From positions 24,614,001 to 24,678,000 of the forward strand of contig OX597823.1 in NCBI GenBank assembly GCA_951406725.2: DNA of 64,000 bases. Direction: 5' to 3'. Both the position numbers and the translations under genes were made by a program. Source of the DNA: Octopus vulgaris. Lineage: Eukaryota. The notes under the pieces are model-generated. The model was not told the origin of the DNA and did no database searches. It worked only from the letters and a program-made list of their open reading frames with translations. Of the stretch, positions 379 through 62,894 are shown in pieces (position 1 is the first letter of the stretch; the number at the start of each line of letters is the position of its first letter).

Positions 379-546
379 TTGTCACAAAAGTTAACTGTGG
401 AGCACCAAAAGATGTTGTTGGTGCATCTAAATCCTATGATACTACTACCTATGAATCTGAAGTGATCTATACTTGTCAAGATGAAGAAGAATTAAAGGCA
501 ACATGTAAAGAGAATAAGAAATGGGCTCCAGAAGTGTCTTGTAAAG
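379..546 (+). CDS. Exon S1: compact Sushi/CCP domain (internal exon of the Sushi-PAN-PAN repeat gene)
   Basis: Acceptor tttccAG|TT, donor AAAG|gtaatg; 168 nt, phase 1-1. Reads VTKVNCGAPKDVVGASKSYDTTTYESEVIYTCQDEEELKATCKENKKWAPEVSCK, with 4 Cys, C-G-x-P, Y-x-C and the CCP Trp. Five paralogous exons occur in the window. Confidence 0.9.
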
Positions 547-2086
547 GTAATGTAAATAGGTTCTCTTTTTGACTCTATCTCAGTAATTTTGTTTTAGCTT
601 TGTGTTCAATTTCTATGTCAGAGGAAGTCTGACTGTATCCATAAAAATTTCCATTGTTCATGACTGGTAGGAGGGTCAGAGGTAGTTATCTTCAGACCAA
701 AGACCTTCCTAAATGCTTGCAGCACAGTGGGCTTCATTAAAGATATTGAAGAGCCAGGTAATGTTATTAATTTGGTATATGGGTTAAGTCTGTCAAACAA
801 GAGCAGTATACGAGGAAGTGTGTTCTTTCCAGCAGGCTTAGCATAGTTTCCATCCACCAAATTTCATTCAAAATCTTTACTCATGAAATAGATTTTTGAC
901 CATGCAGCCATAAGTCCAGACACTACCACATTCTTGTTAAGTAAACTTGTTACATCCACAGCTCTATCTCAGCCAATCTAGGTATTTTTTTCCTTAAATT
1001 CTACCCTCAGCTTTCTTCCCCATACTTTGTTTCATTCTCTGATACTCTGTACAATACAATTCACTGAATTTTTCTTTGCTAGAATTCAGCAATCCAAAAC
1101 TTCTGATCCTCAAATGGTCATCCATTCCACCATCCTTAATCATAATGAGACAAATAATAATTGTGGTTCCTGATAAAAAGAGCATCAATAATTTTTCTAT
1201 AGAAGGATGTTAGTCAGTATCATTACCTCCAATACTTGGTTGCTATTTTTTGTTGTTGACCCACTCCCATTTAGCTGAATTTGAACTGAAATCAGGAAGA
1301 GTTTGGATAAATACCATACAGCTTTTCTTTCAACTTTTTATTTGGTATCCATGTATACATTAAAGATAAAGATGAGAATGATGATGTAATTCTGATGAAT
1401 TGAAAATGAAAATTGCAGAATGCCACTATCAAAGACTACATGAACTCCAAGGACAAGACTCCTCTCCAGTTAATATTGTGGCATACAGGTTTATGCACTG
1501 TGTGACCCACCCATTCTCACATTTCTTTCAATAATTTTTGCTGGGGGAGAATATCTTCTTCTCCATCCTCATCTTCTTTACAAGTAAAACATGAAAAATA
1601 CAGATTAGGGATTGACCAAAGAGAAAAGTCCTCATTGTTATACCTTTCAACCTCATTCACCACAAACCTCTTTTGCTATAGCTAGCAGACAGGGCTAAAG
1701 GGACTTCTCTGCTCAGTTAGAGGAGGATGTGAGGTAAACATAATGATGGACTTGAATGCCAGCTGGGCCTGTCTCATGCATGATACCTGCTGTTTGACAT
1801 AAACCTACAAGTCAATAATGCCTGGACACTGACAGACATGTAAAATTAATTTGTTCTACCATGAACAGCACTGTCTGTTAGAACTTCTATGACTACATTT
1901 TATCTTGGTTTTGTAGAGCAATTTGATAACACTCTCAAGGGCTCCAACAAGTTGCCCATAGTATTTCATGGCCAAAAAGTTCTTTGAAACAAATTTCCCA
2001 CCTCATTCACATCAAACCCCAGAATATCTCCCTGAGAATATCAATGATCTTCCACTCAATTTGTCTTCTATAGATTACATGCATGT

Positions 2087-2617
2087 CACCTTGATTACCT
2101 TGACTGACCAGTCCGTTGGGCGTCCATTTGACACCGCTGGTCACAGCACGCTGTCCACTCCTCTCTGGATCATGCCTTTCTCATCCACGTGATCCCAATC
2201 GTCCTCCTAAAATCATAACTCCACCATGGTGGAGGCCTTCCGGGTGGTCGTTTCCACTCACGTGGGTACCACTTGATAGCTGCACAGGTCCACTGATTAT
2301 CTGTGAGCCGGGCTACGTGTCCAGCCCATCTAAAGTTGTAGTGTGTATGCTCTGCAATGACATCCCTCATGCCGGCTTCTTTCTGATGATCTCGCTACTG
2401 ATGTGCTCTCTCAACGAGATACCAAGCATTGACCTTTCTATGGCTCTTTGAGCCATTACCAGTCTCTGGTCTTCTCTCTTCGTGGTATCCCATGTTTCAC
2501 TACCATATAACATTGCAGGTAGAACTGTACTGTTAATGAGGTTGGCATAATGGATGTGCTCAAGGGAAGGTTGGACATGACCACCCACGCCAACCTCATC
2601 AACAGTACAGTTCTACC
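2087..2617 (-). mobile_element. 5'-truncated RTE-clade LINE 3' fragment
   Basis: Minus-strand ORFs read VLPAMLYGSETW..AQRAIERSMLG and RWAGHVARLTDNQWT..WYPREWKRPPGRPP. The insert is absent from the paralogous intron near 61710 and is flanked by a degenerate 11-bp TSD. Confidence 0.85.
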
Positions 2618-4058
2618 TACAAGTATGTAATGCCCACTAATTACATTGCCCAAGTCAAGTTTGATTTGGTATACTTAAGATTATATGAAGTACCCTGACT
2701 TTCCCATTTTTTAAATTGTGGCATGTGATTGAGAGAGATTTTGTTAATATATCTGACATGTTGGGCATACATATAGCAAGCTTCCACAGTGGCTGGCCCA
2801 CAGTAAATATTGAACTTAATATTGTAAGCTAACAGATTAGACACAGTTGATCCTAAGGTATTATTATATTACGCCCGACTCAATACAATCACCTGGCCCT
2901 TCAGATGCTTATAATGTTGGTGATGGACAATATTTGGTATAATTTTAATATATTTATTACATTAATAAACAGGTGCATTGACACACAGTTGCTCTTGCTG
3001 AATGTGGACTGCAGGTTACCATAGAGTTCATGACATAGCTGTTTCTTTCATAACTAGCTTATAAGGAAATATAAATACCACCACAGTGTAATCAATTATG
3101 TATTCATTATTTAATTACATGACCAAACATATTTAGAAATGCCATGAGTTTATGAAAAATACATGTCTTCCTCAAGCTCACTAATTGTCTACATAAAGTA
3201 AACTGACTTAAACTGAGAATCAGACCCAAATCATTGACTCACACTATTCAATCCATATTTGTAGTAGTGGAAAATACTCAGGGTCACTTTCTGCCTCAAA
3301 ATTAAATAGAAAAATGGCTACTTATTGAACCAAGTTGTGATGTCTAATTAAAATTACACTCTCAACAGCTGGTAACATCATTATGCTAATCACTTTTTCT
3401 TGTCATTAAATTCAGAAGAGAGAACCTCGTGAGATAATCACTTTTTTTTCTCATCTCATTAATAGGATAATTTTTGAAGAAATTAAATTCCCTAGCTTGT
3501 TACATGAAGTTGTGAGTGTTCACATTAACTTCTTAATATTTATTTACTTGGTGATGAATGTGAGATTTTAATTTTCCAAGACAAAACACTGCAAAGTCAA
3601 TATAGAGATGGGCAATAATCTTTTCCATGACTATTCATATTCAGTTACATCCTTTCACTTTCTGGGTTCAAATACCATCTAAATGTGCTCCACCTTTCAT
3701 AATTCTGCAGTTGATAAAACAAGCATTAATTAAGTACAGAGTTTTACTTACTTTAATCTACACTCACTGCAGAATGTGTTATCATGAATGTTTGTAACGT
3801 CAACAATAATTGTAAATATTTTTGTTGGTGATGGATTGAGAGAATCATCAGAACATCAGACGAAATGTGTTGTATTTTTTCTGGCCCTTTGACTTCTGAG
3901 TTTGGATCTGGCTGGTGTCAACTTTTCCTTTTCCAGTCCAATAAGATAAAATACCAGTCAATCTGCTCCTACCTCATATTTTTGTCCATTTTGCTATATT
4001 AGAAATTATTGATTTTGTTTTTGTTGTTTACATTTTTTCAATCTTATTTTAATTCTAG

Positions 4059-4298
4059 TTAGTAAGATCAATTTTGTGAAAGTAAAAGGTGCAATTCTGG
4101 ATGTACCTGGCAAAACTATGTTGAATAAGAAAAATGTAACAGCAGAAGCCTGTGCAGAAAAATGTTTGTCTGACAAAACTTGTTTATCATTTGAAATAAC
4201 AAAGAGAAGTGGAAATTGTTATTTATCAAAGGCGACGGCAGCTTCCACCACAGAATTGAAAACAGCCAAAGACAGAGATTACTACCAACAAATAAAAC
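4059..4298 (+). CDS. Exon PA1: PAN/Apple domain, type A
   Basis: Acceptor attctAG|TT, donor AAAC|gtaatt; 240 nt, phase 1-1. Reads SKINFVKVKGAILDVPGKT..VTAEACAEKCLSDKTCLSFEITKRSGNCYLSK..RDYYQQIK (C-x3-C-x5-C-x-SF..C-x-L PAN pattern). Confidence 0.9.
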
Positions 4299-5799
4299 GT
4301 AATTATTCTTTGTTTCTCTCTTCTTCTGAAACTTGTGATTCATTTGTACTTCATAGTTTATAAATAACCATTTCTGTAAAGATATTGACAGATTTATCTA
4401 TAAGGACAGATATAAACACATTCCAGAAATCAGTAATTTTAGGAACCATAGATACTGTTAAGGTATTTTCACACTGCATTTGTTTATCTTGATCACTTTT
4501 CTGTAATATGTTTTCTTTTGTTCCTTTTTTGTGTGCAACAAAAGAAACATTTGTCATTTTCTTAAACATGAATAGTATTGTAGTAGTGGTGGTTTCAAAT
4601 TTTGGCACAAGTTTTGAAGGAACAGTGTTAATTCTAACCATCAACCCCAGTTCTTGACTGGTATTATTTTGTATCTTCACTGGATGGATGAAAGGCAGTT
4701 TTCCTTGGCAGAATTTTGAACTTGAAATGTATGAATTGGAAGATATATAGCTAGGTAGTATGGTATTTTCACAGTATCTCACCATTTATTGCTCTACTCC
4801 ATAATATGATATTTAGAATTATAGAAGAATGTAATGCTAATCTATTTAATTGTGTATTTCTGATATATTTACATGGTTATTATGGCTGGATGCCCATCTT
4901 ATCACCAATGCTTTTACCAAACTTCTGCCTTATTACTTTAATATCTGAGGAATTGTGAGTGAAGAACAAGTTGATGAGGAACTGTTCTTGTCCAGTTATA
5001 TTTTAATTTGCTTTGTGAGTGAATGTGAGCTCTGAGGCAAGAGTAACTGGTTTGTCTTTAGCAAGCTTTACCACATGTGTACATATTGCCATGCTACTAA
5101 AATCAGAGAAATTGTATGTTGGAACTAAAGAGTTCTCACAACATAAAATAAAAATAGTTCCATAGCATAATTAAAAGAAGACATCCAGCAAATTCACTTA
5201 CATTCATCTCAAGAATTTTGTCCTTTCCTATCAAACTTTCCTTCTTGATACCCTTGTTAAGGGGAAATTCACTAGATCTTGTAATCCCTAAGTAAGAATA
5301 TCCATGATTCCTAGAATGACATTCAATATTTCTTAGTCAAAAAGAAATGTGAGCCATTTATTTGTATATTTATGAGAAGCTTTAACATGACTTCACCGCA
5401 ATATTTATCTTGGATACCATCAGGAAGTTCAAACACATTTACAGCTCAGATTTATAGATACAGTTGCACAACAATTTGAGGTGATATGAACAGCCATGCC
5501 TGGATTCTTAAATGAGTTTGATTGTTGTCAATATAACTACATTCAAATAATTGGACATCACTGCAAACATAGTCAGGTACCACACAAAGTATACTCCTAC
5601 AGAAAGCCTAATAAGATGAATGAACGCTATAAGAATTTCAATTCTAGCTTCTAAGCTCTAATATGACACAATTCTTGGTTCCAAGCTATAATATGACTTC
5701 AGAAATGGATATTTTAGACACGTTTTACAGCATACAAGCCATTAGCTGGAATGGAATTTAGTAAAATGTCCATAAAAAGCAAGCATTCACCACCTTCAT

Positions 5800-6800
5800 A
5801 AATGAAGGCAATTAGAAAGATAAATTCATTCAGTCCTCCTTTCAACCTAAATATCTCCATGAATATTTTCAGGAAAATTTTATCATGCTTTAGACACCAT
5901 TTTTCAAGTGCATAAGTATCACAAACTTATGAATGTGCATAGTGTTAAAATTTATTATTTTTATCTAGATAACAAGGCTTCTAGCATTGTTTTTTACAAT
6001 GGGGAAAACATACACTTACCCAGACTTCATCCAAGACACCCACCTGTAACTGTTAAAATCAATGCAATTTCCCATGGTGAGAATTTTGTTGTTATGAGAG
6101 TGGTATGTATAGCAACCTTCACTCCATCTGATAGTCTCTGGAAAAAAATACATGGGACTTACAACCAGTGACCTTAAGTAAATTTTCACTCAGCATATAT
6201 ACTATTTCGAGTTTATGAATAAGAAAAAGCCCACTTCTTTGTCCTGTTTTCTGTGAAGACTTTAGGAACAGGAAAGTGATGTATGCTCAAGCTTACTCAA
6301 CAGACCCTTCTCTATATTTACCTGCGGTCTCGTGGTTATTATTTGCTAATAAATAACCACGAGACTGCAGATTCAACTGACTTCTATCATTCTACCTCAC
6401 AGTGGATTTAATAAACTGTGAACCTAACTATAATGTAAAACTTTCGAACCTTTGAACATTTTCTTTTCCGATGTATCCCCCTAACTTTTGCTTTTTTCTC
6501 TACCTCTGACTTCTTCATTCTGATGATGTCTACCATTGGCAATGAAGTAAAAATACAAATATATATTTCCCTCAGCATGGTACACAGATATGATCGTAAA
6601 CTACTCTTACTCTCACCTTTCTTAACTAATTAAATAATGGCTTCCTAGCACAAAAGACACACTTCTTATTGTTATTTTTCCACCATTTTCTTATCGTCTA
6701 TATAAATTAAACTACGGTTTACCCTCCAAATTACCTGATGCTGTATACCTTTCACCAAGGGCTATACCTACTGAAGTATTTACCAGGAGTGCTTTGGATA
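5800..6800 (+). mobile_element. Degenerate Penelope-like element remnant with 3' hammerhead-like motif
   Basis: Decayed SPPF..RKILSCFRHHF..HKYHKLMNVHSVKI resembles the PLE post-RT region. A homologous fossil lies at ~33200-33650 in the paralogous intron. Boundaries are approximate. Confidence 0.5.
6520..6598 (+). ncRNA. Degenerate minimal type I hammerhead ribozyme-like motif
   Basis: CTGATGA, stem II tgtctaccat/atggtacaca, GATA (for GAAA), t-GATC-g with a palindromic tetraloop, then TA. It lies at the 3' end of a PLE remnant. Confidence 0.45.
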
Positions 6801-7029
6801 TATCTATCACTTAGAGGGTTTAAACACCTGTAACTTGTACCTGCATATTATATATATAGATAGATAGACAGACAGACAGACAGATATGTGTATATATATG
6901 TTTGGAAATTGATAGATATGTGTATATATATGTTTGGAAATTGATATATTTGTAATTTTAAAAATCATTAGGTAAAAATTGATCAATTTCACCCAATAAA
7001 TGTGAAACAATTTTTTAGTCATAGATCTG

Positions 7030-7900
7030 CATTATTATGAGGAGTTTTTACAAAATAACCAATATCAGCCAATGAAATGTTGTATGTGCTGAACATTGTG
7101 TGGGGACCAAATCAATAGGACCTGCACTACACTCTGAGCTGTATTTGCACCTGAAAAACATGTTCACTCCCATCTTGGAAGCCATCTACTGCAATTTGCA
7201 GCAGAGTGTAAGGATTTGGGTGGGGAGGGGAGGCATAGTAGCACAGCTGGAGATGGTGCTGAACAAGGGGGATTGCATAGAATATTTCAGACCCAGAACT
7301 TTCTACAATACAAAGTTAAAGATTTTTGTAAATGTGCTTGTCCAGATGTTCTTGTTTTGATAGAGGATTGATCAGTTTGAATTAGTGAAAAACATTTGAC
7401 GAGGTGGACTATTGCTACCTAGTAGCTGTTCTAGGACCTGTCAGGGTCCTTCTTCAGGGACTGGATCACCACAATGTACATTGGCATCTATTGAGTGTGC
7501 GTATCAAATGTTTTTTGTCTGTTGAGGATGCCTCTCTCAGCTTTTCAGTTAGTTGTAGCCCTGGAGCTTTTGCTGCTAAGGTTGGAGAGTTTTAGGCTTA
7601 TCTTGATATAGGCTACAAGAGGGCCATGCTGGAGGCTTATCTTACTTGATTTAGACTATAGGAGGGCCATATTGGCTTACCAGTACAATATCACTTACAT
7701 GGTACTGGAGACTTTTGATATAGATGGACATAATATTGAAAGAGTATCTCATGTACTACAGCAAATTGGTGGTCATACAACAAGGCACATGGAGGGGCAA
7801 GCCCATGTTGGTCAATGGGGATTTGTGCCACCTTTACAAGCGTCAGTATGGGTGCATTTACATTGCACTGGCACAGGTGCTTTATACATGAAACCTGTTC
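7030..7900 (-). mobile_element. Degenerate Penelope-like element fragment
   Basis: Minus-strand peptides ISLKLSNLSS, ILCNPP and LDKH resemble the PLE at 34680-35340. Boundaries are approximate. Confidence 0.5.
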
Positions 7901-7979
7901 CCACAAGGCAACAATATTAGGATTACTCAGCTGAAGAGTGATGCAGGGGACATGCTTGTATGTGTGGATGGTCATGATT

Positions 7980-9590
7980 GTACTTAGCTCGACATGTGTT
8001 CTTCAAGCAGAGCAAACCACCTGAAGTTTCAATCCCTTGTGTGGACCAAATTCTGTAAGGCCAAAATTCTGAAGATCCTTTCTCACCACTTTGTACCATG
8101 TCTTCCTTGGTCTACTCTTTCCACAGGTTGCCTCCACAGTTAGAGCTCAGTGCTTCTTGATACAGCTATCCTCATCCATATACATCACATGACAATAAAA
8201 CGTCAGTCTTCTTTCTTGCACACTACATCTGATGCCTCACATATCCAGTTCTTCTCTCAAATCACTTACACTCTACTATGCATACACACTGACATTACCC
8301 ACCCGGCAGTGCATGCTGGCTTCATTTCTTTCAAGCCTTTGCATATCCTCTGTACTCACAGCCCATATCTTACTGCCATGTAGCCGAACTATCTGTACAC
8401 AGGTATCATACAATCTGTCTTATTACAAACAGAGGTAGCAGCTCTCTGAACATTGCCTAACCCATTCTTATTCCAGTGACTATGCCTCTATTGCCAACTT
8501 GGTCACTTAAGTAATGTAAACACTTTACTACTTCTAAGGATCCACCTGGACATTTGAGGGAGTCTATGTTCTGTACATTCCTAGTGTTTAATGTACCGGT
8601 ACATCTGCCACACACAAAGACTACTTTTTCTGTTGATCTTCATGTGATACCGCTGCACCCCTTATGTATCTATAGCTTTCACTGAGTACACTGTATGGAG
8701 CTTCTTCCAACACCTTTTCTACATATCCAGCAGGGCCATCTCCTTGAAAGAATCAGTGATTTGTTTGTTTTCCTACTTACTACGGCTTTGATCTTTGCTA
8801 AATTAACTTTAAGGTCCTTTGATTCCAGACCTTGCTTCCACACCTGAAATTTCTTCTCTTGTTCTGGTAGTGATTCAGCAATAAGAACACAGTCAGCAGT
8901 CTAGAGAAGCTCCTAAGGGCAGTCAGTCTTAAATTCCTTGGTTATAGCCTGGAGGACTATGATAAATAAGAGGTGACTGAGAACTTATCCCTGGTGGACT
9001 CCTATTTGTACACTAAATTCCTTTCAGAAATCATTGCTAACTTTCACCTTACTGACAGTATCCCTGTACATGGTTTGTGCAGCTCTCACCAACAACTAAT
9101 ATGTTCCTAGATTCTGCATTGCCCACCAGATAAAGAAACAGGGGACCCTGTCAAATGTTTTATCCATGTAAACAAAAGGCAAATCCAGAGATATTCTGGA
9201 ACAATTACTTCACCTGAAAGATAGCATCAGTAGTGCTCAGTCCTGGCACCAATCCAAACTGCATCTCATCTAGGATAATTCTCTTCCTAATTAATTGAAT
9301 TATAACCCTTTCTGTAGTTTTTGTCACCTGGTCCACTAATTTGATACTTTTGTAATTTTTTGGTTTAAGGTGTCACCTTTACATTTATAGCAGTTGACTA
9401 TAATGCGACCGCAGCAGTCACTGGCTGTGACTCCTACATAGATAACCTGACTAATTATAAGGGTGACTATTTTATATTCCACTCCAACAGATATTTTGTG
9501 CATCTCAGCAGTGATTCCTGATGCGCTGGGGCTTTTTTCTGTCTCCATATCCTTAAATTGTATTATCTACTATGTTGTTATCGATTTAGA
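7980..9590 (-). mobile_element. Degenerate RTE LINE (RT to C-terminus)
   Basis: KSPSASGITAEMHK..IIVNCYKCKGD; collinear with the copies at 51275-54672 and 57454-59746; many stops and frameshifts. Confidence 0.85.
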
Positions 9591-11054
9591 TAGTCAGTCT
9601 TTCTGTTACATCCACACTAGGCAGATTGATTGGTTATCAGGTGACTGGCTGGCTTCCTGAATTTGACATTGCAGATCATTAAGTTATTCCCACCACAGAA
9701 GTCCAGTAGCCTAGAAATGAGAAAATGCTAAGCCTGAAAGGTCAAGCAGAAGTCGTAAACAATTACATCAACTCGATCATATGTTACCACATGACTTTCA
9801 TGCCACTCCAGTTCATTCTCTCAATGGAGTGGAACATCAACTCATCTACTTTTTATAGAAGTGATGTGTTTCACTAGCCAGGTGCTCCATTTCATATCAA
9901 CACTCACTGAAAGACATACTGAGCATGCCATGGTTGAGGATGCAGTGACACCCACTAAAGCTGCAATATCTCCAGCTATTCCTTGTCATCATTTGTCAAA
10001 TGTGTTTTCACAGATCTTCTCTTTGACAGAGATGCATTTCTGCACCAAGGAGATATACAGACAGGGTGCTTGGCATCTGAATGTTGTCAAACATTTACAG
10101 TCTGCTTCCAGTTAGGGAATATGGTTACTGGAAGTTCCATATTGATTTTCTTTCAGTGATTATGGGAGAACAAGAATGACTACATTCTCAAGGAAACTCT
10201 GGGTGTTAAAGGAAATATACTGGTTGGTCTGTTCCTGAGGACTTTCAGTTTGGGGGTCCATGGAAAATTTGCAGAAATCTCTGGCCAGGCATTGCTGCCA
10301 GGAAGAGAATTGCAAGTTCAAGATAGATTCTACAGCCATGGAAATGACATTGGCAAAGCCTGTCCAAGTTGTTTGTAAAGTGATAAAACTGTTCTGTATG
10401 CATTTGTCATTTGCCTGTGCTTTACTGATTTGTGGAGTTTAGATTTGAACACCTACTGTCATATGTCAGACAAATCAAGCTATCAGTCGACTCCATTGTG
10501 AAAATTATTCCACCACATTTCTTTAACCAGACTGATCAGAGAACTGTAGTCTGTCTGGTGGCTTTAGTAAAGTAGATTGAATAGAAGGACTGAAGACAGA
10601 TGCCTTTCTCTTTGGCCAAGTTCTCCACTTTTCCAAGTTTCACTTGCAAAGGAAATTGAAAGTAGAGAGGGAAGTGCTGTCTCCTAGAAAATTTGTTTAA
10701 AAGTGGGTAAGTGTGGTCAGCATGGTTGAAGGGAACAGGGCAGCTCTGAACATACACATTTATTGGAGAACTACTAGAATAGTGCTCATGCCTTAGTGTT
10801 TATGGTGGCCATGGTTTTGTGTTTTCATCAGTAACTCTGAGATTTCTTCGCTTTTGGGGAATTATTATTTTTGTTTTTTTGGTTTTTCCCGCCCATACTA
10901 GTATGGAAGTCAGATGTTAAACAAGGATGTTGACAATGGCTTTCTTTTTGTGATTTTACTTTTTACATACACTTTTGTATTTTCCCACATTGCATCATTC
11001 TATATCAGTTCCAGCTTTTTGCCAAATCTTAGATGTTAATAAAGAAACATTAAT

Positions 11055-11082
11055 GGTGTTGTTGTTGTTGTCGTCATCATTG

Positions 11083-11133
<51 letters not shown>
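11055..11133. repeat. (GTT)n/(GTA)n microsatellite
   Basis: Directly visible; (GTA) is repeated about 17 times. Confidence 0.95.
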
Positions 11134-11134
11134 T

Positions 11135-11830
11135 AAGGGACTGAGCTGCCAGAATTATTAGCACACCAGACAAAATACTTAGAGGCATTTTGCCCATCTT
11201 TACGTTCTGAGTTCAAATCCTGCTGAAGTCAACTTTTCCTTTAATCCCTTAAGGAGTCAATATAATAAGTACCACCTGAGCACTCAGGTTGATGTAATCA
11301 ACTAGCCCTCTCCTCACAAAATTTCAAGCTTTGTGCCAACAGTAGAAAGAATCCTAAAGGCAGCAAACCAGCAGAATCATTAGCATACCAGACATAAAGC
11401 TTACTGGCATTTCATCCATCTTTATGTTTTGAATTTGAATTTCCCACACAGTTGACTTTGCCTTTCATCTTTCAGCAGTCACTGAAATGAGTTGCAGTTG
11501 AGCACTGGGGTCAAAGAAACTGACTTACATCTCCTCCTCACAAAACTTCACATCTTGTGCCTATAGGAAAACGAATCATCATCATCATTACAGCATTATT
11601 ACTCTTTCTAAGACAAAGAGCTGGCAGAATTATTAGCAAACCAAACAAAATGCTTAGTGCATTTCTTCTGGTTTTACATTCTGGGTTCAAATTCCTTTCA
11701 AATTACCTTTGCCTTTCATTATTTTGGATCAATAAAATGGATATCAGTTGATCATTGGAGCCAGTGTAATTGACTGAGCCCCTAACTGAAAAGTTCAGTC
11801 CTTGTGCCTATAGTGCAAAGAATCTTTATT
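11135..11830 (+). mobile_element. Three head-to-tail tRNA-derived SINE copies (~220 bp each)
   Basis: Each copy follows gagctggcagaat..ttagca, a B-box-like (g)agttcaaat(t)cc, actttgcctttcat, gagcactgggg and cttgtgcc. Copies start near 11135, 11357 and 11608. Confidence 0.8.
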
Positions 11831-51250: not shown

Positions 51251-51274
<24 letters not shown>

Positions 51275-51275
<1 letters not shown>

Positions 51276-54200
51276 CATCATCATCATCATCGTTTAACAT
51301 CCGCTTTCCATGCTAGCATGGGTTGGACGGTTTGACTGTGGGCTGGCGAACCAGATGGCTGCACCAGGCTCCAGTCTTGATCTGGCAGAGTTTCTACAGC
51401 TGGATGCCCTTCCAAATGCCAACCACTCTGAGAGTGTAGTGGGTGCTTTTATGTGCCACCGGCACAGGGGCCAGTCACGCAGTACTGGCAACGACCTCGC
51501 TTGAATTTTTACACACGCCAATGGCACAGGTGCCAGTAAGGTGATGCTGGTAATGATCCCACTCGAATGGTGCCTCCTATATGCCACCGGCATGGAAGCC
51601 AGTTAGCCGCTCTGGCAACGATCACGCTCGGATGGTGCTCTTAGCACTTTACTAGCATGGGGCACAAGTGCCAGTAAGGCGAATCTGCCAACGATCACAC
51701 TTGAATGGTGCCTTTTATGTGCTACTGGCACAGAAGCCAGTTAGCTGCTCAGTCAATGATCATGCTTGTATGGTGCTTGTGCCCGTCATCGAATTTCACT
51801 TAGATTTTGATTTCAGTTTCACTTGCCTCAACAGGTCTTCGCAAGCAGAGTTTAGTGTACAAAGAAGGAAAAGGTATACACAAGCGGCCTGGTTATGCCC
51901 CTGGCACAGGGCACAAGGTTATGGTCTTGTTTGGCTTGCCGGATCTTCTCACGCACAACATATTTCTAAAGGTCTCGGTCACTAGTCATTGCCTTGGTGA
52001 GGCCTAATTTTAGAAGGTTGTGCTTCACCACCTCATCCCAGGTCTTCCTGGGTCTACCTCTTCCACAGGTTCCCTCAACTGCTAGGGTGTGGCACTTTTT
52101 CACACAGCTATCCTCAACCATTCTCGCTACATGACCATACCAGTGCAGTCGTCTCTCTTGCACACCACATCTGATGCTTCTAAGGTCCAACTTTTCTCTC
52201 AAGGTACTTACACTCTGTCTAGTATGCACACTGAAATTACACATCCATCAGATCATATTGGCGTCATTCCTTGTGAGCTTACACATGTCCTCAGCAGTCA
52301 CAGCCCATGTTTCACTGCCATGTAGCATGGCTGTTCGTACACATGCGTCATACAGTCTACCTTTTACTCTGAGCAAGAGGCCCTTTGTCACCTGTAGGGG
52401 TAAGAGCTCTCTGAACTTTACCCAAGTCATTCTTATTCTAGCAGCTACACTTCCAGAGCACTCTCTCCTGCTACTGACTTGGTCACCTAGGTAACGGAAG
52501 CTATCAACTACTTCTAGTTTTTTTCTCTCTCGAATGTGGTGGAAGTTGTTCTCTGCGCATTGTCAGTGTTTATTGCACCCGAGCATCTGCCGCATACAAA
52601 AGCTATCTTCCCAGTTAGCCTTCCTTTGATATTACTGCACCTCTTATGTGTCCATAGCTTACACTGGGTACATCTTATAGAGTTTCTACCTACTCCTCTA
52701 CTACAGATCGAGCAGGGCCATCTACCTGAAGGGATTTGTGGTTTGCCTGCCTTCCTACTTATTAGGAGTTTGGTTTTAGCTACGTTGACTCTAAGGCCCT
52801 TTGATTCTAATCCTTGCTTCCACACTTGAAACTTCTCCTCTAGTTCTGATAGTGACTCAGCAATTAGAGCAAGGTCATCAGCATTGAGGTGCTCCCAGGG
52901 GCATCCTGTCTTGAATTCCTCTGTTATTGCCTGGAGGACTATGATACATAGGAGGGGGCTGAGAACTGAACCTTGGTGGACCCCTAACTCTACCTGGAAT
53001 TCTTCACTGTACTCGTTGCCAACCCTCTTCTTACTAGCAGCGTCCCTGTACATGGCTTGCAAAGCTCTCACTAACCATTCATCTATCTCTAGTTTCCTCA
53101 TTGACCACCAGATAAGAGATCGGGGGACCCTGTCGAAGGCTTTCTCCATGTCAATGAAAGCCAGGTACAGGGGCTTATCTTTGGCTAGATATTTCTCCTG
53201 CAGCTGTCTTACCAGAAATATGGCATCAGTGGTGCTTTTCCCTGGCACGAACCCAAACTGCATCTCATCTAAACTAACTCTCTCTCTAATTAGTTGGGCT
53301 ATGACCCTCTCCGTAACCTTCATTACCTGATCCAACAACTTGATACCTCTGTAATAATTTGTATCTAGGGCGTCACCTTTACCTTTGTAGTAGTTGACTA
53401 TTATGCTGCTATGCCAGTTATTGGGTATGACTCCTTCGTGTATCACCTGGTTAACTATACGAGTGACTAGGCTATAGCCGACACTACCAGATATTTTGAG
53501 CATCTCTGCAGTAATTCCTGATGGGCCTGGGGCTTTCCCTGTCTTCATGCTTCTAATTGCCTTAACTACCAAGGAACTGTCAACTCGGATAGCTGGTCCC
53601 TCTGTTGGGTCGACATTCGGCAGACTCTCTTTCTCCCATTCATTTTCTTTATTCAGCAACCTTTCATAATGGTGTCTCCAAACCTCTCTCTTTGCAGCCC
53701 CATTTAGCGCAAGAGAACTATCATCCATGCAGACACATTTCTCTCCCACAACATCTCGATTCTCTCTCACACACTGTCTTGCAGCACAAAATACCTCAAG
53801 TCTTTGATCCTCACGGCGCAGAACATTGGCAAATTTTTTCTTATCTGCTTCCCCTCTGGCTAAGTAAACCTGTCTCCTAGCTTCTGTTCTAGCAGTCTGA
53901 TTCAAATCCCTGCTACCACTGTTCTTCCAGTCCTTCCAAGCCTGTTTCTTTTCATCAATAGTCCTGTCAACAACATTGTTCCACCACTACATTATTTTGG
54001 GTCAAGAGGGGACTTTGCACCATCCACAGATCTGGTCAGTGGCTCTCAGCAGGTTGTCCTGTAGAAACCTCCAGTTGTCTTCTACACTATGTGAAGCTAT
54101 TTCCTCTTCTATTTCGTCAAAGGCTTTGAGTAATATGTTTCTAAATCTCTGGCCATTCGCAAGATCTTTAAGCTTCCAGACCCTTCTTTTTCTAGTTGGT

Positions 54201-54672
54201 CATCTTCTGGGTGCCCACTTAGTCCTGATCCTAAAGTCACTAACTACCAGTCTATGTTGTGGGGTACATTCTTCACCTGGGAAGGTTTTGGCATTTATAA
54301 GCAACCATCTTTCCCTTTTTCTGGCAAGGATATAGTCAATTTGGCTAGTATGTTGGCCCAATCGGTAAGTGACTAGGTGGCTGGTAGGTTTCCTAAAGTT
54401 AGTATTGCAAACCATAAGATCATTTGCATCACAGAATTCCAGCAGCCTAGTTCCCTCCTCATTGCGGGAACCATAGCCATAGCCTCCATGTATGCCATGG
54501 AAGCCCCCTGCATGTTGTCCAATATGTCCATTGAAGTCACCAGCCACAAAAAGAAGGTCACTGTCGTTCGTCAACGAGGTAGTCTGCAGTAGGGTGTCAT
54601 AGAATCGATCTTTCTGTCCATTGGGTACCTGGCTGAGGGGCATAGGCTGATATAATGGTTGCTAAACTATGG
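51275..54672 (-). mobile_element. RTE LINE, ~3.4 kb, 5'-truncated within the APE endonuclease, inactivated
   Basis: APE motifs (AGDFNGHIG, SQIDYIL, PQHRLV) and RT motifs (GKAPGPSGI, QFGF, FIDMEKAFD, GVHQGSVLSP). YADD is mutated to NADD; there is a premature stop near 54200 and a frameshift near 52514. A 3' UTR and (TGA)n tail are present. Confidence 0.95.
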
Positions 54673-55205
54673 CGAACCACATATAATGTTAAGTATGTTA
54701 TAGAAAGTATTGGCTATTTACAAAGTGCACAGATCCAATGCGAATAAAGTAGAGGAAAATGAAAATGCAAATCCTAGGCAGTCAACCAAATTCCCAAATG
54801 CATAAGCAAAGATATTCAATCAATGTAATTAAATCATATATATTTATATACATCAACATAAATCATGCATGTATAGGCTTAAAGATTCTCCAAGGGTATA
54901 AAGAATAAAACCAAACATACATAAAAATATAGGAGAGATATAAAAGCATATAAAAATGTATAAAAATACATATAAGATTACATATAAATAAGGATTACAT
55001 GTAAAAAGTTATGCCTGATAAATATAGGGGGCACAAAACGAGTGAGAGGTTGATAAATATAGGAATAAAGATGTCAATCTTCAAAATGGCAGACCACCTA
55101 AATTGTCTAAAATTTCTAATACACCTAAAATATGAGATCAAAGTGACACAAGACATCAAGTTTAAGAACAGTAAATAAAAAGAATCCAAAAAATAGGAAG
55201 GTGTT

Positions 55206-55295
55206 CCATCTATGGCTATTTCATGGGTACACTACCGGTCAGGGTAAAAAACATTAAAACTTCCATATATGTAATGTCCCTATCATCAGGATGAC
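55206..55295 (-). ncRNA. Minimal type I hammerhead ribozyme-like motif (PLE-terminus type)
   Basis: The minus strand reads tcatc-CTGATGA-ta gggacattac..gtagtgtaccc at-GAAA-t agcc a-TA-gatgg. Both core boxes are intact and stems I, II and a 2-bp stem III can form. Confidence 0.6.
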
Positions 55296-55563
55296 ATACT
55301 CCTTGGTGGCTGCCATCATGTATATGTATATATAGTAAATCCAAAAAACCAAACTCAACAAGAAAAAACAACGATGTGAGAATGTGGTACATGCAAAGTA
55401 TTAGCAGACACTTAGGGAAGGAAAAAAGGTAGTTTTACGTTTCAAGCAAATCTCTATGTCAGAAACAGGAGATGGGAAAAAAATCCAAGAGAAAATGAAG
55501 GAGAAAAAAATCACCAACGATCCATATGTGGTTACATTTTGAAATATATATACACACACATAT

Positions 55564-55810
55564 ATAGGGTGCAATGGGTAAATTGTCACCATTTTATACT
55601 TTTAATTTTGCATGTGTGCATAGTTTGTTTTTGATTTTGTGGGAAGATGAATGGAGGCACAACATTGCCATCACTAGTGATCACTCCAAACACCATGATG
55701 TTGACTGGATGTTTGATTTTTATCACTCTCAATACATGTTCTCAGATTGTACTGTCCTCAGATTGATACCCCAAAACTCTGAAATGTCCATGTTGGAACT
55801 TCTGGCACAT
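55564..55810. mobile_element. Rearranged maT fragment (left end plus inverted internal piece)
   Basis: 55564-55640 matches the left end of the 31034 element; 55640-55810 is the reverse complement of ~31220-31372 and resumes at 56080-56100. Confidence 0.8.
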
Positions 55811-56079
55811 GTGTCTAACACATGTGGACATGCCTACAAAGTCAGAAAACAACACAGCTCCCATGACTTTCGGAAACATTTTTTCACGCTCAGAGTTGCT
55901 GAAGCATAGAATAAAGTGCCTGTGTCAGTTGTTGACTGCCATGACACTGCATCATTTAAGGCCCTCATGCTTTCCGAAATCCGCCGAAACTACACCTGAT
56001 TATATATACACTTTAGATGAGTTGTAGTGCACCTGAGCACTATACACAATTATTATTATTATTATTATTATTATTATTT
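55810..56079 (+). mobile_element. CR1-type LINE 3' end with (ATT)n tail
   Basis: TCGHAYKVRK..FRKHFFTLRVAEA*NKVP.SVV fits the CR1 C-terminal pattern RGH..KL..R..FF..RV...WN.LP. Confidence 0.8.
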
Positions 56080-57453
56080 AAATGTCAAGCAGTACAGCAT
56101 GTTGTTTCCTATTTCCAAATCAATGTGTTCACATAATGTATTTCACAAGCCTACCAAAACGCTCTCTACTTGACTTCCACCAACCTCTACTCTTTATAAG
56201 AGTTTCACTAGTCCATTTTCCACTCCCCCAGGGGTGTCAATGACTCTCGCCACAGCAGACCACATCATGTGTGTGTTTATATATATATATATATATATAT
56301 ATACACCACACACACACACATATTATGTTAAAGATATATATGTGCATGAATTATCCACTTTTCCATTCTTGCATGGATCAGACACTTGCTTACTATATAT
56401 ATAATGAAGAAATAAATAGGATAATACACCACGACTAATTAGCACTCTAATAGAGCCTCCAGAATAGAAAACCAAAAACGTGAGAGTAAATTTCAAAGGT
56501 CAGTGTTCATATTCACTCAATATATTTCAAAGTGTCAGAATACTCCACAGCAGTCATTGTTGTGGTGGTACCAGTAAGGGTTGCATTATTGTTGCGATGG
56601 TTGTTGTTGTCTCCCTTTCTCCACCATAGAAATTATAATGTTGTCAGTATTTCATAATGAAGAACATTTCTTTGTTAATGTTTTAGCATATACTTGTATT
56701 ATCACCAAATTTATTGAGAGGGAAAATTAAAAAGTTAGGTTTTTCGTAACCTGTTCATGCATCCAAATGTTCACTGGGTCCTGTTTTTCTATGTTCCCCT
56801 ATTTTAATTTGTGCTCTGTGCTGGTTTGTTCATTGACATAAAGTATTTATTATTTGTCCAATATGATCCTTACCACATCCTAAGCATGTTATTATGTGTG
56901 TGTCTTGGTGTTTTGTCTTTGTCCCCACCTCTGCTGAGAAACTGGAGTTGGTTGGATTATGTCCCTGCGACTTAGCAGTTTGGCATGACAGAGCATTAGA
57001 ATAAGTATCTCACAAATATAATTACTGAGTCCAATTCATTTCACTAAAACCCCTTCAAGGTAGTGCCCCAGTATGGCCACATTCCAATGACTGAAACAAG
57101 TAATGGATAAAAGCTTACAAAACACTCCCTTCCACATTGTCTCTCACTTTTCCTCTCCCTACTCTCCTTCCTTTTTGCCAGGTTCTCTCTGTTACTTTTT
57201 TACTTTGCTTCTCTCTATATATCTCTCTCTAGCTCCAAGATTTACAACTTATTTTATTATTTTATATTTATATATTTTACATTTTTTTCCTATTTAATGT
57301 TGTCCATTTTGGTTATTCTTTTCTCCTTTCATTGATTACAGGCCTCTCTTATTTTTTACCCCTCTCCCTTTCCGTCTGTCTCTTTCAGGCATTTGCTCTC
57401 TATCTACTTCTCTCAGTTTACTTCTAACAACTTTACAACTCCACACATTTGAT

Positions 57454-59746
57454 ATCATCATCATCATCGTTTAACGTCTGTTTTCCGCGCTAGCATGGGT
57501 TGGACGGTTCGACCGGGGTCTGGGAAGCCAGGGCTGCACCAGGCTCCAGTCTGATCTGGCAGTGTTTCTACAGCTGGATGCCCTTCCTAATGCCAACCAC
57601 TCCGCGAGTGTAGTGGGTGCTTTTTACGTGCCACCTGCACAGGTGCCAGGGGGTTTTGGCATCGGCCACGATCGGTTGGTGCTTTTAACGTGCCACTGGC
57701 ACAGAAGCCAGCCAAGGCGGTGCTGGCATCGGCCATGTTCGGATGGTGCTTTTTATGTGCCACCGGCACAGAAGCCAGTCGAGGCGGCGCTGGCAACGGC
57801 CACGTTCGGATGGTGCTCTTTATGTGCCACCAACACAGGTATCACAACTACTGTTTCCATTGATATTTGTTTCGATGTTCGTGTACATGCACTTGACTCA
57901 ACAGGTCTCCTCAAGCACAGCAAGACGTTCTGGGATCCAAGGTACTTTGAATGGGCAGGGTCTATGCGGAACTGGAGCCGGAAGCATCCTGGGTCTTTGT
58001 AGTCACATCACATCTCCAGAGATCTCGGTCCTTCGCCATTGCCTCAGTGAGGCCCAACGCTCTGAAGTCATGCTTGACTACCTCATCCCATGTCTTCCTG
58101 GGTCTACCTCTCCCCCTGATTCCTTCAACTGTTTGGGAGCGGAACTTCTTCACACATCTCTCCTCATCCATCCGCAGTGCATGACCATACCATCGCAAGC
58201 GTCGCTCTTGCACACTGCATCTGATGCTTCTTATGTCCAGCATTTCTCTCAGGGTGCTTACACTCTGTCGTGCATTCACACTGACATTACACATCCAGCG
58301 GATCATGCTAGCTTCATTTCTTTCAAGTCTACGCATGTCCTCTGCAGTCACGGCCCATGTTTCACTGCCGTGAAGCATGGCAGTTCGCACACATGCATCA
58401 TACAATCTACCTTTCACTCTGAGTGAGAGACCCTTTGTCGCCAGTAGGGGTAGGAGCTTTCTAAACTTTGCCCAGGCTATTCGTATTCTAGTGGTGACAC
58501 TCTCTGAGCATCCACCTCCACTACTAACTTGGTCACCCAGGTAGCAGAAACTATCAACTACTTCTAGTTTCTCCCCCTGGAGTGTGATGGAATCTGTTTT
58601 CTGAGTATTTGTGGTGTCTATTGTCCCTGTGCATCTGCCGCACATGAAAGCTATCTTATCAGTTAATTTCCCTTTGATGTTGCTGCACCTCTTATGCGTC
58701 CATAGCTTACACTTGGTGCATCTTATGGAGTTTCTACCTACACCTTCCCTACAGATTGAGCAAGGCCACCTGCCCGATGGGGTGTGTGCTGAGTTCGCCT
58801 TTCTGCTTACTATAACTTTGGTCTTCGCTACATTTACTCTAAGGCCCTTTGATTCTAACCCTTGTTTCCACACCCGAAATTTCTTTTCTAGTTCCGGTAG
58901 TGATTCTGCTATGAGAGCCAGGTCATCAGCATAGAGGAGCTCCCAGGGGCAACCTGTTTTGAATTCCTCTGTTATTGCTTGGAGGACTATGATGAATAAA
59001 AGGGGACTGAGGGCTGAGCCTTGGTGTACACCTACTTCTACCCGGAATTCTTCACTATACTCATTGCCAATCCTAACCTTGCTGACAGCCTCGCTGTATA
59101 GAGCCTGTACAGCCCTTATTAGCCATTTGTCAATCTCTAGTTTCTGCATCGACCACCAGATAAGGGATCGGGGAACCCTGTCAAAGGCTTTCTCCAAGTC
59201 CACAAAAGCTATGTAGAGGGGTTTATCTTTAGCTAGGTACTTCTCCTGCAGTTGTCGGACCAGGAATATAGCATCAGTGGTGCTTCTACCCAGCACAAAA
59301 CCGAACTGCATCTCATCTAAGCAAATTCTCTCCCTAATGAGATGGGTTATGACCCTCTCTGTGACCTTCATCACCTGATCCAACAGTTTAATACCCCTGT
59401 AGTTATTTCTATCTAGAGCATCACCCTTACCCTTGTAGCAGTTGACTATGGTGCTGCTACGCCAGTCATTGGGTATGACTCCATTATGAACTACCTGGTT
59501 TACAATGCGGGTGACTAGGCCATAGCCCACATAACCAGCTGTTTTAAGCATCTCAGCAGTGATACCTGATGGGCCGGGGGCTTTACTTGGTTTCATACCC
59601 TTAATTGCCTTAACTACAAGGGAGCTGTCTATTTGGATAGCTGATCCCTCTACTGGGTCAACATTTGGCAGGCTCTCCTCCTCCCATTCATTCTCCACAT
59701 TCAGCAGTCTTTCATAATGGCTTCTCCAAGCCTCTTTCTTTTCACC
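57454..59746 (-). mobile_element. Young 5'-truncated RTE LINE with an uninterrupted RT-to-stop frame (~594 aa)
   Basis: ORF 57962..59950 from GEKKEAWRSHYERLL onward, with FVDLEKAFD, GVHQGSALSP, intact LYADD and RLRWYGH. The 3' UTR has tandem repeats and a (TGA)n tail. Confidence 0.95.
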
Positions 59747-60084
59747 ATATCTATAATATAATGCAATAAAATTTTCCCTTGATGATTCATTTGTGGTTTG
59801 GCATCCAGTTGTGCTTGGAACATCCAATTCATCCAATTTAAGCAACCACAATAGTTGAATATACAAGGGGAGCAAATGATATAAAATTTTGTTTATCATA
59901 ATTTCTCCTACATTTGCCCTATGTATCATAACCAGTTTACTATACTGCATGCATGTATATTGTGCAAATGATTCATTTTATTTTAGTTAATATCTTTTAT
60001 TCTAAATATGTAATTATCTCCTCGTTCTCCCCTTCTTACTAACATATACTCACAACTGACATCAGTTTCTTTTATCAATTACAG

Positions 60085-60252
60085 TTGTCACAAAAGTTGA
60101 CTGTGGAGCACCAGAAGATGTTGTTGGTGCATCTAAATCCTATGATACTACTACCCATGAATCTGAAGTGATCTATACTTGTCATGATGGAAAAGAATTA
60201 AAGGCAACATGTAAAGAGAATAAGAAATGGGATCCAGTAGTGTCTTGTAAAG
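60085..60252 (+). CDS. Exon S6: compact Sushi/CCP domain (near-copy of S1)
   Basis: Acceptor attacAG|TT, donor AAAG|gtaatg; 168 nt, phase 1-1. Reads VTKVDCGAPEDVVGASKSYDTTTHESEVIYTCHDGKELKATCKENKKWDPVVSCK. Confidence 0.9.
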
Positions 60253-62654
60253 GTAATGTAAATAGGTTCTCTTTTTGACTCTATCTTCGTAATTTTCTTT
60301 TAGTTTTGTGTTCCAAGTCTATGTCAGAGGAAGTCTGACTGTGTCTATGAAAATTTTCATTGTGTTTCTGATTGGTAGGTGGGTCAGAGATAGTTATCCG
60401 TGGGTCAGAGATAGTTATTCTCAAACTAGAGACCTTCCTAAATGCTTGCAACACAGTGGGCTTCATTAAAGATACTGAAGAGCCAGGTAATTCTATTAAT
60501 TTGGTTGATGGATTAATCCAGCTAAACAAGAGCAGCAAGTGAGGAAGAGTGTTCTCTCCTACAGGCTTCTGCAAAATTTCCTTCCACCAAATTTCATTCT
60601 CAATCCTTAGTCAAGAAGCAGATTTTTAATCATGCAGCCATAAGTGGAGACAATACCAGATTCTTATCAAGTAAACTTATTACCTCCAAAGCTCTACCTC
60701 AGCTAACCTAGGCAGTTTTTCTCTTAAATTCTAACTTCAGTTATCTCGCCCATACTTTGTTTCATCCTCTAAAACTCAGAACAATATAACACATTGAATT
60801 TTTCTTTACTAGAACTCAGTAATCATCCGAAACTTATGATATTCTAATGGTCATCCATTTCACCATCCTAAATCATAATGAGACAAATAATAACAGTGGT
60901 TTCTAATGGAAAAAGAACCAACTGACTACCCTCCTCAACCCAGCTGGATTTGAACTGAAAACATGAGAAGCCTGAATACATAGCATAAAGCATTTCTTTC
61001 AGTTTTCTATTTAGTATTTATGTATACATTTAAAATAAAGATGAGAATGATGATGCATTTCTCTGGAATGTTGAAGGATCTTTATCTAAAACTAATTGAT
61101 GAACTCCACCATCAAAGATCATCATGAGCTCTAAGGACATGTGTCCTCTCCAATTAATATCTTTAAGATTCAGGTTTATGCAGTGTAGGATACATCCACT
61201 CTCATGTAGCTTTCAGTAATTTCCCTAGAGGAGAATATCTTCCTCTCCTTTACAAGTAAAACTTTAAAAGTACAGATTAGGGATTGACCAAAGAGGAAAA
61301 CCCCAATCTTTCAACCTCATCCATCACACAATCTCTTTTACTATAGCTAGCAGACAAAGGAAAAGGAACTTCTCTGCTCAGTTAAAGGAGGATGTGAGGT
61401 GATCATAATGATGGACTTGAATGATAGTCAGATCTGTCCCACACATAATAGCAGCAGTTTGACATGTAAAATTAATGTGTTCCACTGTGAAAATCTTGCA
61501 CAGCACTGTCTGTCAGAACTTCTATGACTAGATTTTGTCTTGGTTTTACTGAACTATTTGATAACACTGCCAGGGGCTCCAGGAAGTTGCCATAGCATTC
61601 CATGTCCAAGAAGTTCTTTGAAGCAAACTTTCCACCTCATTCTCATCGAACCCCAGAATATACCTGTGAATATCTATGATCTTCCACTCAATTAATCCTC
61701 TAAATTACAAGCATGTAATGCCCACTAATTACATTGCCCAAGTCGAGTTTGATCTGGTATACTTAGAATTACATTAGGTAATCTGACATTAATAAACATG
61801 CGCATTGACACACAGTTGCTCTTGCTGGACATAGACCACAAGGTACCATAGAATTCATGACATAGCTGTTTCTCTCATAACTAACTTATAAGAAAATATA
61901 AATACTACCATTGCAATGTAATCAATTATGTATTCATTATTTAAGTACATGACCAAACATAATTAGAAATGCCATGAGTTTGTGGGAAATTCATGTCTTT
62001 CTGAAGCTCACTAATTGTCTACGTAAAGTAAACTGACTTGAACTGAGAATCAAACCCGAATCATTAACTCACACCATTCAATCCAGGGTCACTTTCTGCA
62101 TCAAAAACTAATAGGAAAATGGCTACTTATTGAACCAAGTTGTGATGACTAATTAAAATTACACCCTCAACAGCTGGTAAAATCATTATGCTAATCATTT
62201 TTTTTTGGTCATTAAATTCAGAAGAGAGAACCTCTTAAGATAATCACTTTTCTTTTTTCATCTCACTAAAAGGGTAATTTTGATGAAATAAATTTCCTAG
62301 CTTGTTACATGAGGTTGTGAATGTCCACATTAACTTCTTAATATTTATTTACTTGGTGATGAATATGAGATAATTTTAGTTTTCCAAGACAAAACACTGC
62401 AAAATCAGTTAAGAGATGGGCAATAATCTTCTCCATGACTAGTCATATTCAGTTACATTTTTTCACTTTCTGGGTTCAAATCCCATCTAAATGTACTTCA
62501 TCTTTCATACTTCTGTGGTTGATAAAACAAGCATAAGTCAAGTACAATTTAATCAATTAGCTCCTATCTCAAACATTTGTACATCTTTCTATATTAGAAA
62601 TTATTGATGTTGTTTTTGTTGTTTACATTTGTCTCAATCTTACTTTAATTCTAG

Positions 62655-62894
62655 TTACTAAGATCTATTTTACGAGAGTAAAAGATGCAATTCTGGATGT
62701 ACCTGGAAAAACTTTGTTGAGAAAAAAAAATGTGACAACAGAAGTCTGTGCAGATAAATGTTTGTCTGACAAAACTTGTTTATCATTTGAAATAACTAAA
62801 GGAAGTGGAAAATGTTATTTATCAAGGGAGACTGCAGCTACCTCCAAGAAAATGAAAGCAGCCAAAGACAGGGATTACTACCAACGAGTAGATT
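62655..62894 (+). CDS. Exon PA5: PAN/Apple domain, type A
   Basis: Acceptor attctAG|TT, donor GATT|gtaatt; 240 nt, phase 1-1. Reads TKIYFTRVKDAILDVPGKTLLRKKNVTTEVCADKCLSDKTCLSFEITKGSGKCYLSR..RDYYQRVD. Confidence 0.9.

Follow-up and report, generated by a model that had tools for sequence, protein, structure and literature searches.

We analysed a 64,000-nucleotide stretch of the Octopus vulgaris genome (the window; its positions 1..64000 equal C10:24,614,001-24,678,000, C10 being contig OX597823.1) and found that it lies entirely, on the + strand, within a predicted gene (C10:23,362,495-25,003,050) built of PAN-A, PAN-B and Sushi modules and closed by a GON domain. The window belongs to one unbroken 349-exon frame, which is likely a single gene, and we consider a single transcription unit highly probable. 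Taken to its full extent, the model would describe a single secreted polypeptide of ~24,350 residues (2.75 MDa, not counting some 265 N-glycans and about 690 disulfides), a micrometre-long rope carrying a 13-module super-repeat. Such a chain would be longer than Dumpy (about 22,900 residues) and possibly the largest secreted animal protein described, arisen within octopuses when the body of a small salivary-gland protein was amplified ~105-fold; this complete reading is, in our estimate, evenly balanced. The window holds modules 249-263 of 343, corresponding to about residues 17,450-18,500 or 4.3% of the coding sequence.

Extent and structure of the giant gene

A region of 1.864 Mb of C10, containing no N, was read end to end. 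In the profile search 348 hits scored over 25 bits, every one of them on the + strand and none on the - strand. Two are decayed partial copies in introns and were left out of the gene model; the other 346 are intact exons with GT-AG sites in phase 1-1, with one acceptor site among them chosen by hand. Genome searches with single exons placed 107 PAN-A, 105 PAN-B and 134 Sushi matches on C10, which lie without exception on the + strand in the interval 23.27-24.99 Mb. These exons belong to two genes. The three modules furthest upstream (PAN-A, PAN-B, Sushi) form a short gene together with a GON end and a stop, and the giant begins ~68 kb further on.

The giant model comprises 349 exons, 73,065 nt and 24,354 residues over a span of 1,640,556 bp, namely two leader exons, 343 modules (105 PAN-A, 105 PAN-B, 133 Sushi), four GON exons and the stop, with a mass of about 2.75 MDa at 113 Da per residue. 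All 343 array module exons are intact, in phase 1-1, multiples of three in length, bounded by GT-AG sites and on the + strand, and an exon-by-exon check found the exons and junction codons of the model free of stops. The introns have a median length of 4.0 kb, the longest measuring 19.4 kb. Within the modules we counted 1,375 Cys and 265 sequons; the four structural Cys are present in 343/343 modules and the Trp in 133/133 Sushi modules, extending to the whole array what a first-pass annotation of the window had noted for its exons. The ends of the giant are as follows.

C10:23,362,495-549, + strand: first leader exon, by similarity to the short gene leader
C10:23,363,457-486, + strand: second leader exon, on the same basis
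C10:24,990,060-331, + strand: first GON exon, from the model
C10:24,994,551-727, + strand: second GON exon, from the model
C10:24,997,435-576, + strand: third GON exon, from the model
C10:25,002,974-25,003,050, + strand: fourth GON exon with the stop, from the model

The leader exons share 72% DNA identity with those of the short gene, reach a similar hydropathy (2.09 vs 2.24) and encode a predicted signal peptide. Within the region, the only other copy of the leader exons and of the terminal exon belongs to the short gene upstream, and GON occurs twice on C10, once per gene; no further leader, GON or terminal exon copy was found inside the array in the 1.864 Mb. A repeated hydrophobic 'leader-like' open reading frame was rejected as an interspersed repeat present on both strands (7 +, 4 -). 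The expectation that the array runs on beyond both window ends was borne out: upstream it continues for 1.25 Mb as far as the signal-peptide leader, and downstream for 0.33 Mb as far as GON and the stop. The proposal of a very long secreted or surface protein is supported, and the model points to secretion rather than membrane anchoring: no membrane segment was present, the highest 19-residue hydropathy being 1.38 in the modules and 0.91 in GON. The furin motif was absent from the inter-module linkers (0/342). The C-terminal residue of the giant is Cys in both O. vulgaris and O. bimaculoides, which is not the case for the short paralog.

Exons and splicing within the window

The fifteen exons of the window are given below in window coordinates. 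Each is based on a splice and frame check together with Pfam, and read contigs from two runs, X1 and X2, are named where they contribute.

379..546, + strand: S1, Sushi/CCP exon, module 249 of 343
4059..4298, + strand: A1, PAN-A exon
12495..12728, + strand: B1, PAN-B exon, NES sequon
16115..16285, + strand: S2, Sushi exon, opens a 13-module super-repeat; X1 contig joint to S3
19194..19364, + strand: S3, Sushi exon; X1 contig
23979..24218, + strand: A2, PAN-A exon; exact X2 contig joint to B2
26657..26893, + strand: B2, PAN-B exon, NAT sequon; X2 contig
28388..28558, + strand: S4, Sushi exon
32270..32509, + strand: A3, PAN-A exon
34289..34522, + strand: B3, PAN-B exon, NAT sequon
38607..38777, + strand: S5, Sushi exon
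42633..42866, + strand: A4, PAN-A exon
49138..49371, + strand: B4, PAN-B exon, NAT sequon
60085..60252, + strand: S6, Sushi exon
62655..62894, + strand: A5, PAN-A exon, module 263 of 343

As the first-pass annotation had described, all fifteen (379-62894, + strand) show AG...GT ends, lengths divisible by three, phase 1-1 and 0 stops. Its frame is indeed stop-free, but the 3,153 spliced nucleotides hold 1,050 full codons rather than 1,051, the latter being 3,153/3. The domain assignments were confirmed by Pfam, with 9/9 PAN exons above the PAN_1 cut-off and 6/6 Sushi exons matching PF00084, four of them above its cut-off of 20.7 bits and two below it (S1 19.3, S6 18.5). S1 and S6, the latter 13 modules later, are 85% identical. 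The sequon reported past the last PAN-B Cys is present in 4/4 window copies (NES, NAT x3) and in 79/105 across the whole array. The proposed strict periodicity did not hold, the window order being S A B S S A B S A B S A B S A. What repeats in this part of the gene is a 13-module super-repeat, and the window contains 12 modules of one 13-mer; the exon after A5 is a PAN-B at C10:24,682,934, beyond the window.

Splicing was assessed by mapping read contigs over window positions 15,800-26,925, which include 3 of the 348 model junctions; X1 and X2 are two samples of one study, presumed to be RNA. One X1 contig joins S2 to S3 and one X2 contig joins the last base of A2 to the first base of B2, both covering these exons without the intervening introns. 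At the start of the X1 contig, the 4 bases ahead of S2 read as a PAN-B exon end, with 86 more letters upstream. The S3-A2 junction was not seen among the contig pieces listed. The anticipated joining of consecutive exons is thus shown at two places, short of a full transcript.

Growth of the array and selection

Between module pairs the median identity is 45-58%, nearest-neighbour medians are 69-79%, and 6/343 modules have a neighbour at >= 98% identity. The 13-module super-repeat SSABSABSABSAB recurs in modules 56-110 and 196-272 (lags 13, 26, 39), modules 273-342 show lags of 8, 18 and 38, and the remaining modules are aperiodic. We compared 57 disjoint exon pairs lying 13 modules apart, with their flanks as reference. 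Divergence per site was 0.102 in exons vs 0.155 in flanks, the latter also carrying 38-47 indels per kb. At the flank decay rate 75% of the pairs would be expected to contain a stop and over 99% a frameshift, compared with 0/57 broken pairs observed. Substitutions were spread evenly over the codon positions (367/327/396). Selection retains the frame, the cysteines and the core, and the surfaces drift or diversify; the omega values by column class (see below) fit selection of fold and length more than of one binding site per module.

These data bear on the reading of the locus as an assembly artefact or a decaying tandem repeat, which would account for the few module pairs that are 98-99% alike and for the two decayed partial exons within introns. 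Because the copies have diverged to the extent given above, with so few modules at the upper limit, the array is no assembly artefact; it is moreover spliced and collinear in two other species (see below), and none of the 57 pairs is broken. This reading is already largely refuted, and we give it almost no weight. The decayed partial PAN exons are located at C10:24,195,887-24,196,057 and 24,207,889-24,207,975.

A short neighbouring paralog and the probable origin of the giant

The short gene upstream of the giant is an ortholog of GON-Abd-1:

C10:23,269,851-23,294,199, + strand: short paralog, signal-PAN-A-PAN-B-Sushi-GON, 465 residues

It shares 79-96% identity with GON-Abd-1 of Abdopus aculeatus in the PAN-B, Sushi and GON exons; the corresponding O. 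vulgaris model, CAI9728787, misses the PAN-A exon and the beginning of the leader. The coleoid gland proteins GON-Abd-1 (R4G2C1) and GON-Sep-2 (R4FJA6) have leader exons and PAN-A, PAN-B and Sushi modules in common with the giant. The GON-Abd name reportedly goes back to Ruder and co-workers in 2013. Compared with the giant, on the same strand and at the same locus, the 465-residue gene has a median module identity of 42-52% and a four-exon GON end at 57%. In both types the PAN and Sushi modules lead into a C-terminal GON, and an ADAMTS protease domain is absent despite the database names; the GON-Abd-1 type contains one PAN-PAN-Sushi unit, the giant about 105. By leader, modules and end, the giant belongs with the small molluscan PAN/Sushi-GON proteins. 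Since the giant and its upstream neighbour have leader and end in common, a short signal-PAN-PAN-Sushi-GON unit of this kind is the likely starting point of the giant, enlarged through duplication of exons and in part of a whole 13-module super-repeat.

Further members of these families occur elsewhere in the O. vulgaris genome. Additional PAN pairs lie at C13:76,174,065-76,175,090 (- strand), C13:19,980,558 (+), C17:45,985,658-45,988,813 (+), and C3:25,602,680 and 25,610,567 (-). The two C3 copies encode identical peptides 7.9 kb apart, representing a recent duplicate or an assembly repeat, and relatives of these scattered pairs are named WSC or zonadhesin-like. A PAN-A-like decayed fragment is found on another chromosome (C6:48,618,695-844), and a third GON exon set at C1:49,326,822-49,334,254 is likely an ADAMTS9/20 ortholog.

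The array in other species

Named O. vulgaris proteins match array exons at 100%. The O. bimaculoides models follow the array order, covering modules about 45-60, 65-100, 97-122, 127-137, 290-330 and 331-342 plus GON at 64-93% identity, and those of O. sinensis cover modules 149-157 and 168-203 with 98-100% identity, with the exception of one mis-predicted module; the latter range corresponds to the 36 modules, in sequence, of LOC118764742. The array is therefore collinear in two other Octopus species.

Relatives were surveyed among the best 150 of 737 representatives, of which 19 were mapped and 20 looked up by name, and no array-type PAN-A/PAN-B/Sushi relative outside Octopus was identified among those checked. 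Sepia, Patella, Gigantopelta and Branchiostoma have short PAN/Sushi/EGF-GON proteins, and Argonauta has PAN-A/PAN-B pairs. The Sepia pharaonis match is a PAN-B-Sushi-Sushi-GON protein with an incomplete start, leaving room for a longer cuttlefish gene. The PAN/Sushi unit is old, and as far as the present, incomplete annotation goes its amplification looks octopus-specific. The architecture had been put forward as new, which does not apply to the building unit, known from short PAN/Sushi/GON proteins of octopus, cuttlefish and limpet, and does apply to its ~105-fold amplification. The literature searched, with subscription journals and some supplements (skin-mucus proteome, bioRxiv) outside its scope, contained no account of the giant locus, and term searches gave no mention in 10.64898/2026.04.09.716377, PMC4280546, PMC11525497, PMC12607849, PMC7656900, PMC11431876, PMC7333891 or 10.1101/2023.05.16.540928.

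Module structure and a proposed secreted scaffold

In the fold model of the short paralog, the two PAN domains and the Sushi domain are each predicted with confidence. The predicted PAN-A has the HGF N-domain as its nearest fold (Z 12.3, root-mean-square deviation 1.8-2.2 Å, 82-83 aligned), with plasminogen also close; for PAN-B the kallikrein and MIC4 apple domains are nearest (Z 8.5), and for Sushi the complement CCPs. PAN-A modules are strongly basic, with a net charge of +3 or more in 99/105 and a mean of +7.4, compared with a mean of -0.6 for PAN-B. The GON domain (PF08685) scored 114.8 bits in the C-terminal O. bimaculoides ortholog fragment, and a GON model from a decapodiform-type relative reached a predicted local distance difference test (pLDDT) of 90.6. 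Its first 50 residues match the collagen I C-propeptide (E 1.2e-4), with Atlas clusters containing GON and COLFI at 0.95. Beyond these 50 residues the fold searches gave no placement: Foldseek returned weak rows only, to tenascin-R and ficolin domains (E 0.07-0.08), and the VIA list was filled by the Sushi part.

On this basis we propose that the giant is a secreted PAN/Sushi chain capped by GON, forming a micrometre-long multivalent scaffold of a secreted gel or matrix, a proposal that we regard as equally open to acceptance and doubt. After internal duplication of the PAN-A/PAN-B/Sushi unit from a short gene like the upstream neighbour, one full-length transcript would run from leader to GON. 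Its product would most likely be secreted as one uncut chain, because none of the linkers carries a furin motif. Assuming 2.5-3.5 nm per PAN and 3.5-4 nm per Sushi, it would resemble beads on a string about 1.0-1.3 micrometres long. The HGF N-domain, which is basic, binds heparin. By analogy, the ~105 basic PAN-A modules may grip acidic or sulfated glycans by avidity and so cross-link a gel or matrix, with PAN-B bearing the N-glycan and Sushi serving as a spacer. For the GON domain of ADAMTS9/GON-1, a role in the endoplasmic reticulum in transport to the Golgi is reported (PMC3338439); in the giant, GON could act as an export aid or an end anchor. The adhesion, recognition or matrix role suggested at first pass remains an inference.

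Alternatives to the proposed scaffold

A number of observations weigh against the scaffold proposal with its one full-length chain, and we set each beside the alternative on which it bears. The O. vulgaris annotation divides the array among at least five models (CAI9728789, 790, 791, 792, 796), named SVEP1-like, ADAMTS20-like or hypothetical, and among the matches listed the array is split into six models in O. bimaculoides and three in O. sinensis. Annotated gene boundaries fall between modules 44/45, 125/126, 138/139, 152/153 and 279/280. Candidate leader-like reading frames number 24 on the + strand vs 20 on the - strand, and a non-homologous internal first exon is possible. A set of medium-sized genes, as the annotation has it, or a polyprotein processed into units would agree with these models. 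However, none of the array fragments opens with a signal peptide, their starts being a Met within a module or non-module sequence, and those without GON end in no recognisable terminal domain. The lack of inner leader, GON and terminal exon copies and the intron lengths also speak against separate genes, and the linkers against a cut polyprotein; we consider this alternative quite improbable.

Junction support amounts to 2/348 at a depth of 2-10 in presumed RNA, the S2-S3 joint lies 2 bases upstream of where the splice sites were predicted and requires one base difference, and no reads across more than two exons were present in runs X1 and X2. One gene may yield mostly shorter isoforms by skipping of module blocks, as in Drosophila dumpy, with the 24,354-residue form rare or a ceiling. 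The symmetry of all 343 module exons would permit this, dumpy combines such exons with alternative splicing (PMC2930355), and some database models omit modules, though these may be prediction errors. Against it, both junctions seen are consecutive, including one from Sushi to Sushi, so that the exons joined are not mutually exclusive cassettes, and one O. sinensis model retains 36 modules in order. We regard predominant skipping as unlikely, if worth serious attention, and slightly favour a near-full-length form as a common product.

Overall omega is 0.71-0.76, corresponding to weak purifying selection, and by column class it is 0.24 in conserved and 1.0-1.3 in variable columns, a split that is circular. 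Values of 1.0-1.27 in variable columns and the median identity of 45-58% between modules are what a diversified recognition array, immune or prey-directed, would show. Such an array might leave the posterior salivary gland together with the short paralog, which is represented by 18 peptides at 43% coverage in the O. vulgaris proteome of that gland (PMC7693380 Table S1), and the MIC4 and SML-2 apple domains, which are fold neighbours, are lectins. Relaxed surfaces, however, also give omega near 1, orthologous modules remain 64-93% alike between species, and the C-terminal UniProt fragment of the giant had 0 hits among the listed rows of that salivary table. A recognition array therefore seems to us rather improbable, less so than separate genes. 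Two further points concern the scaffold itself: A+T-rich codons favour Lys, which qualifies PAN-A basicity as a glycan grip, and the fold model is that of the short paralog rather than of the giant, with the inter-domain shape unfixed (predicted template-modelling score, pTM, 0.46).

Comparison with known modular proteins

The giant would most plausibly work like Dumpy. Both are extracellular, with a repeated three-module unit (EGF-DPY-EGF in Dumpy) and exons divisible by three, and Dumpy is tied to the apical matrix (PMC2930355). Dumpy differs in its 78 coding exons and in its ZP domain and membrane anchor, whereas the giant has 349 exons of the one-domain type, a GON end and no membrane segment; EGF-DPY repeats, a ZP domain and a membrane anchor were all absent from the giant model. 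Titin, with an 11-domain super-repeat and 363 exons, offers a second parallel. The likeness lies in scale (3.7 MDa; PMC3166861), hundreds of modules and super-repeats; titin is however an intracellular Ig/FnIII protein, in contrast to the predicted signal peptide, Cys content and sequons of the giant.

With ADAMTS9/20 and GON-1 the giant shares the C-terminal GON domain (PF08685). Membership in this family was rejected, as the locus contains no Reprolysin metalloprotease, disintegrin-like or TSP1 exons. Pfam found PAN, Sushi and GON only in the C-terminal O. bimaculoides ortholog fragment, and no long intronic open reading frame of metalloprotease or TSP1 type was among those listed, the frame closing without room for one. 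SVEP1/Polydom, the source of the 'SVEP1-like' database names, likewise has Sushi arrays in a secreted matrix protein, and cnidarian Polydoms add a PAN/Apple domain (PMC12549020). Membership was again rejected: the giant has no vWA, EGF, pentraxin or HYR domain, and its PAN modules outnumber the Sushi modules. All coding exons of the model are leader, PAN, Sushi or GON, and the Pfam labels of the fragments include no vWA, EGF or pentraxin. The HGF N-domain, factor XI/kallikrein, MIC4 and SML-2 share the PAN fold with four Cys and tandem PAN pairs. These apple proteins contain at most a few copies. The giant modules lack the third apple disulfide, and the predicted PAN pair, taken as one unit, superposes on neither MIC4 nor SML-2 (root-mean-square deviation 10-13 Å).

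If it is one chain, the giant would set a new scale for folding and export by the secretory pathway and represent a third route to giant modular proteins, besides titin and Dumpy. Should the predicted chain hold, it would rank among the largest animal proteins, of which databases carry separate fragments only; standard annotation hides such genes as mislabelled 'SVEP1-like' or 'ADAMTS20-like' pieces. With a single-unit paralog adjoining the giant, its birth is traceable exon by exon, old diverged blocks and young 13-module super-repeats standing in one gene. The protein is a candidate for a structural role in a secretion or matrix specific to octopuses, and the locus offers a protease-free setting for the study of the GON domain.

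Other features of the locus

The long intronic open reading frames, among those listed, are retroelements, simple repeats or low-complexity frames. Retroelement-type frames of 670-1,080 codons lie on the - strand at window positions 57,965-59,977 and 63,712 onward, with others of the same class and strand in introns and the flank at C10:23,378,074-23,381,307, 23,618,585-23,621,761 and 25,018,464-25,021,574. One retroelement has three window copies, near 8.0-9.5, 52-53.5 and 58-59.6 kb. At window positions 35,257-36,021, in the intron 3' of B3, Thr/Ser/Asn-rich low-complexity frames of about 200 codons occur on both strands and are non-repeated in the region. A 62-63 bp unit is repeated five times in tandem at window positions 37,279-37,624, within a short interspersed repeat that recurs across the window. 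Finally, 40 kb past the giant stop, a 233-codon Ser/Pro-rich frame with a signal-peptide-like start (C10:25,043,690-25,044,388, + strand) is probably the next gene.

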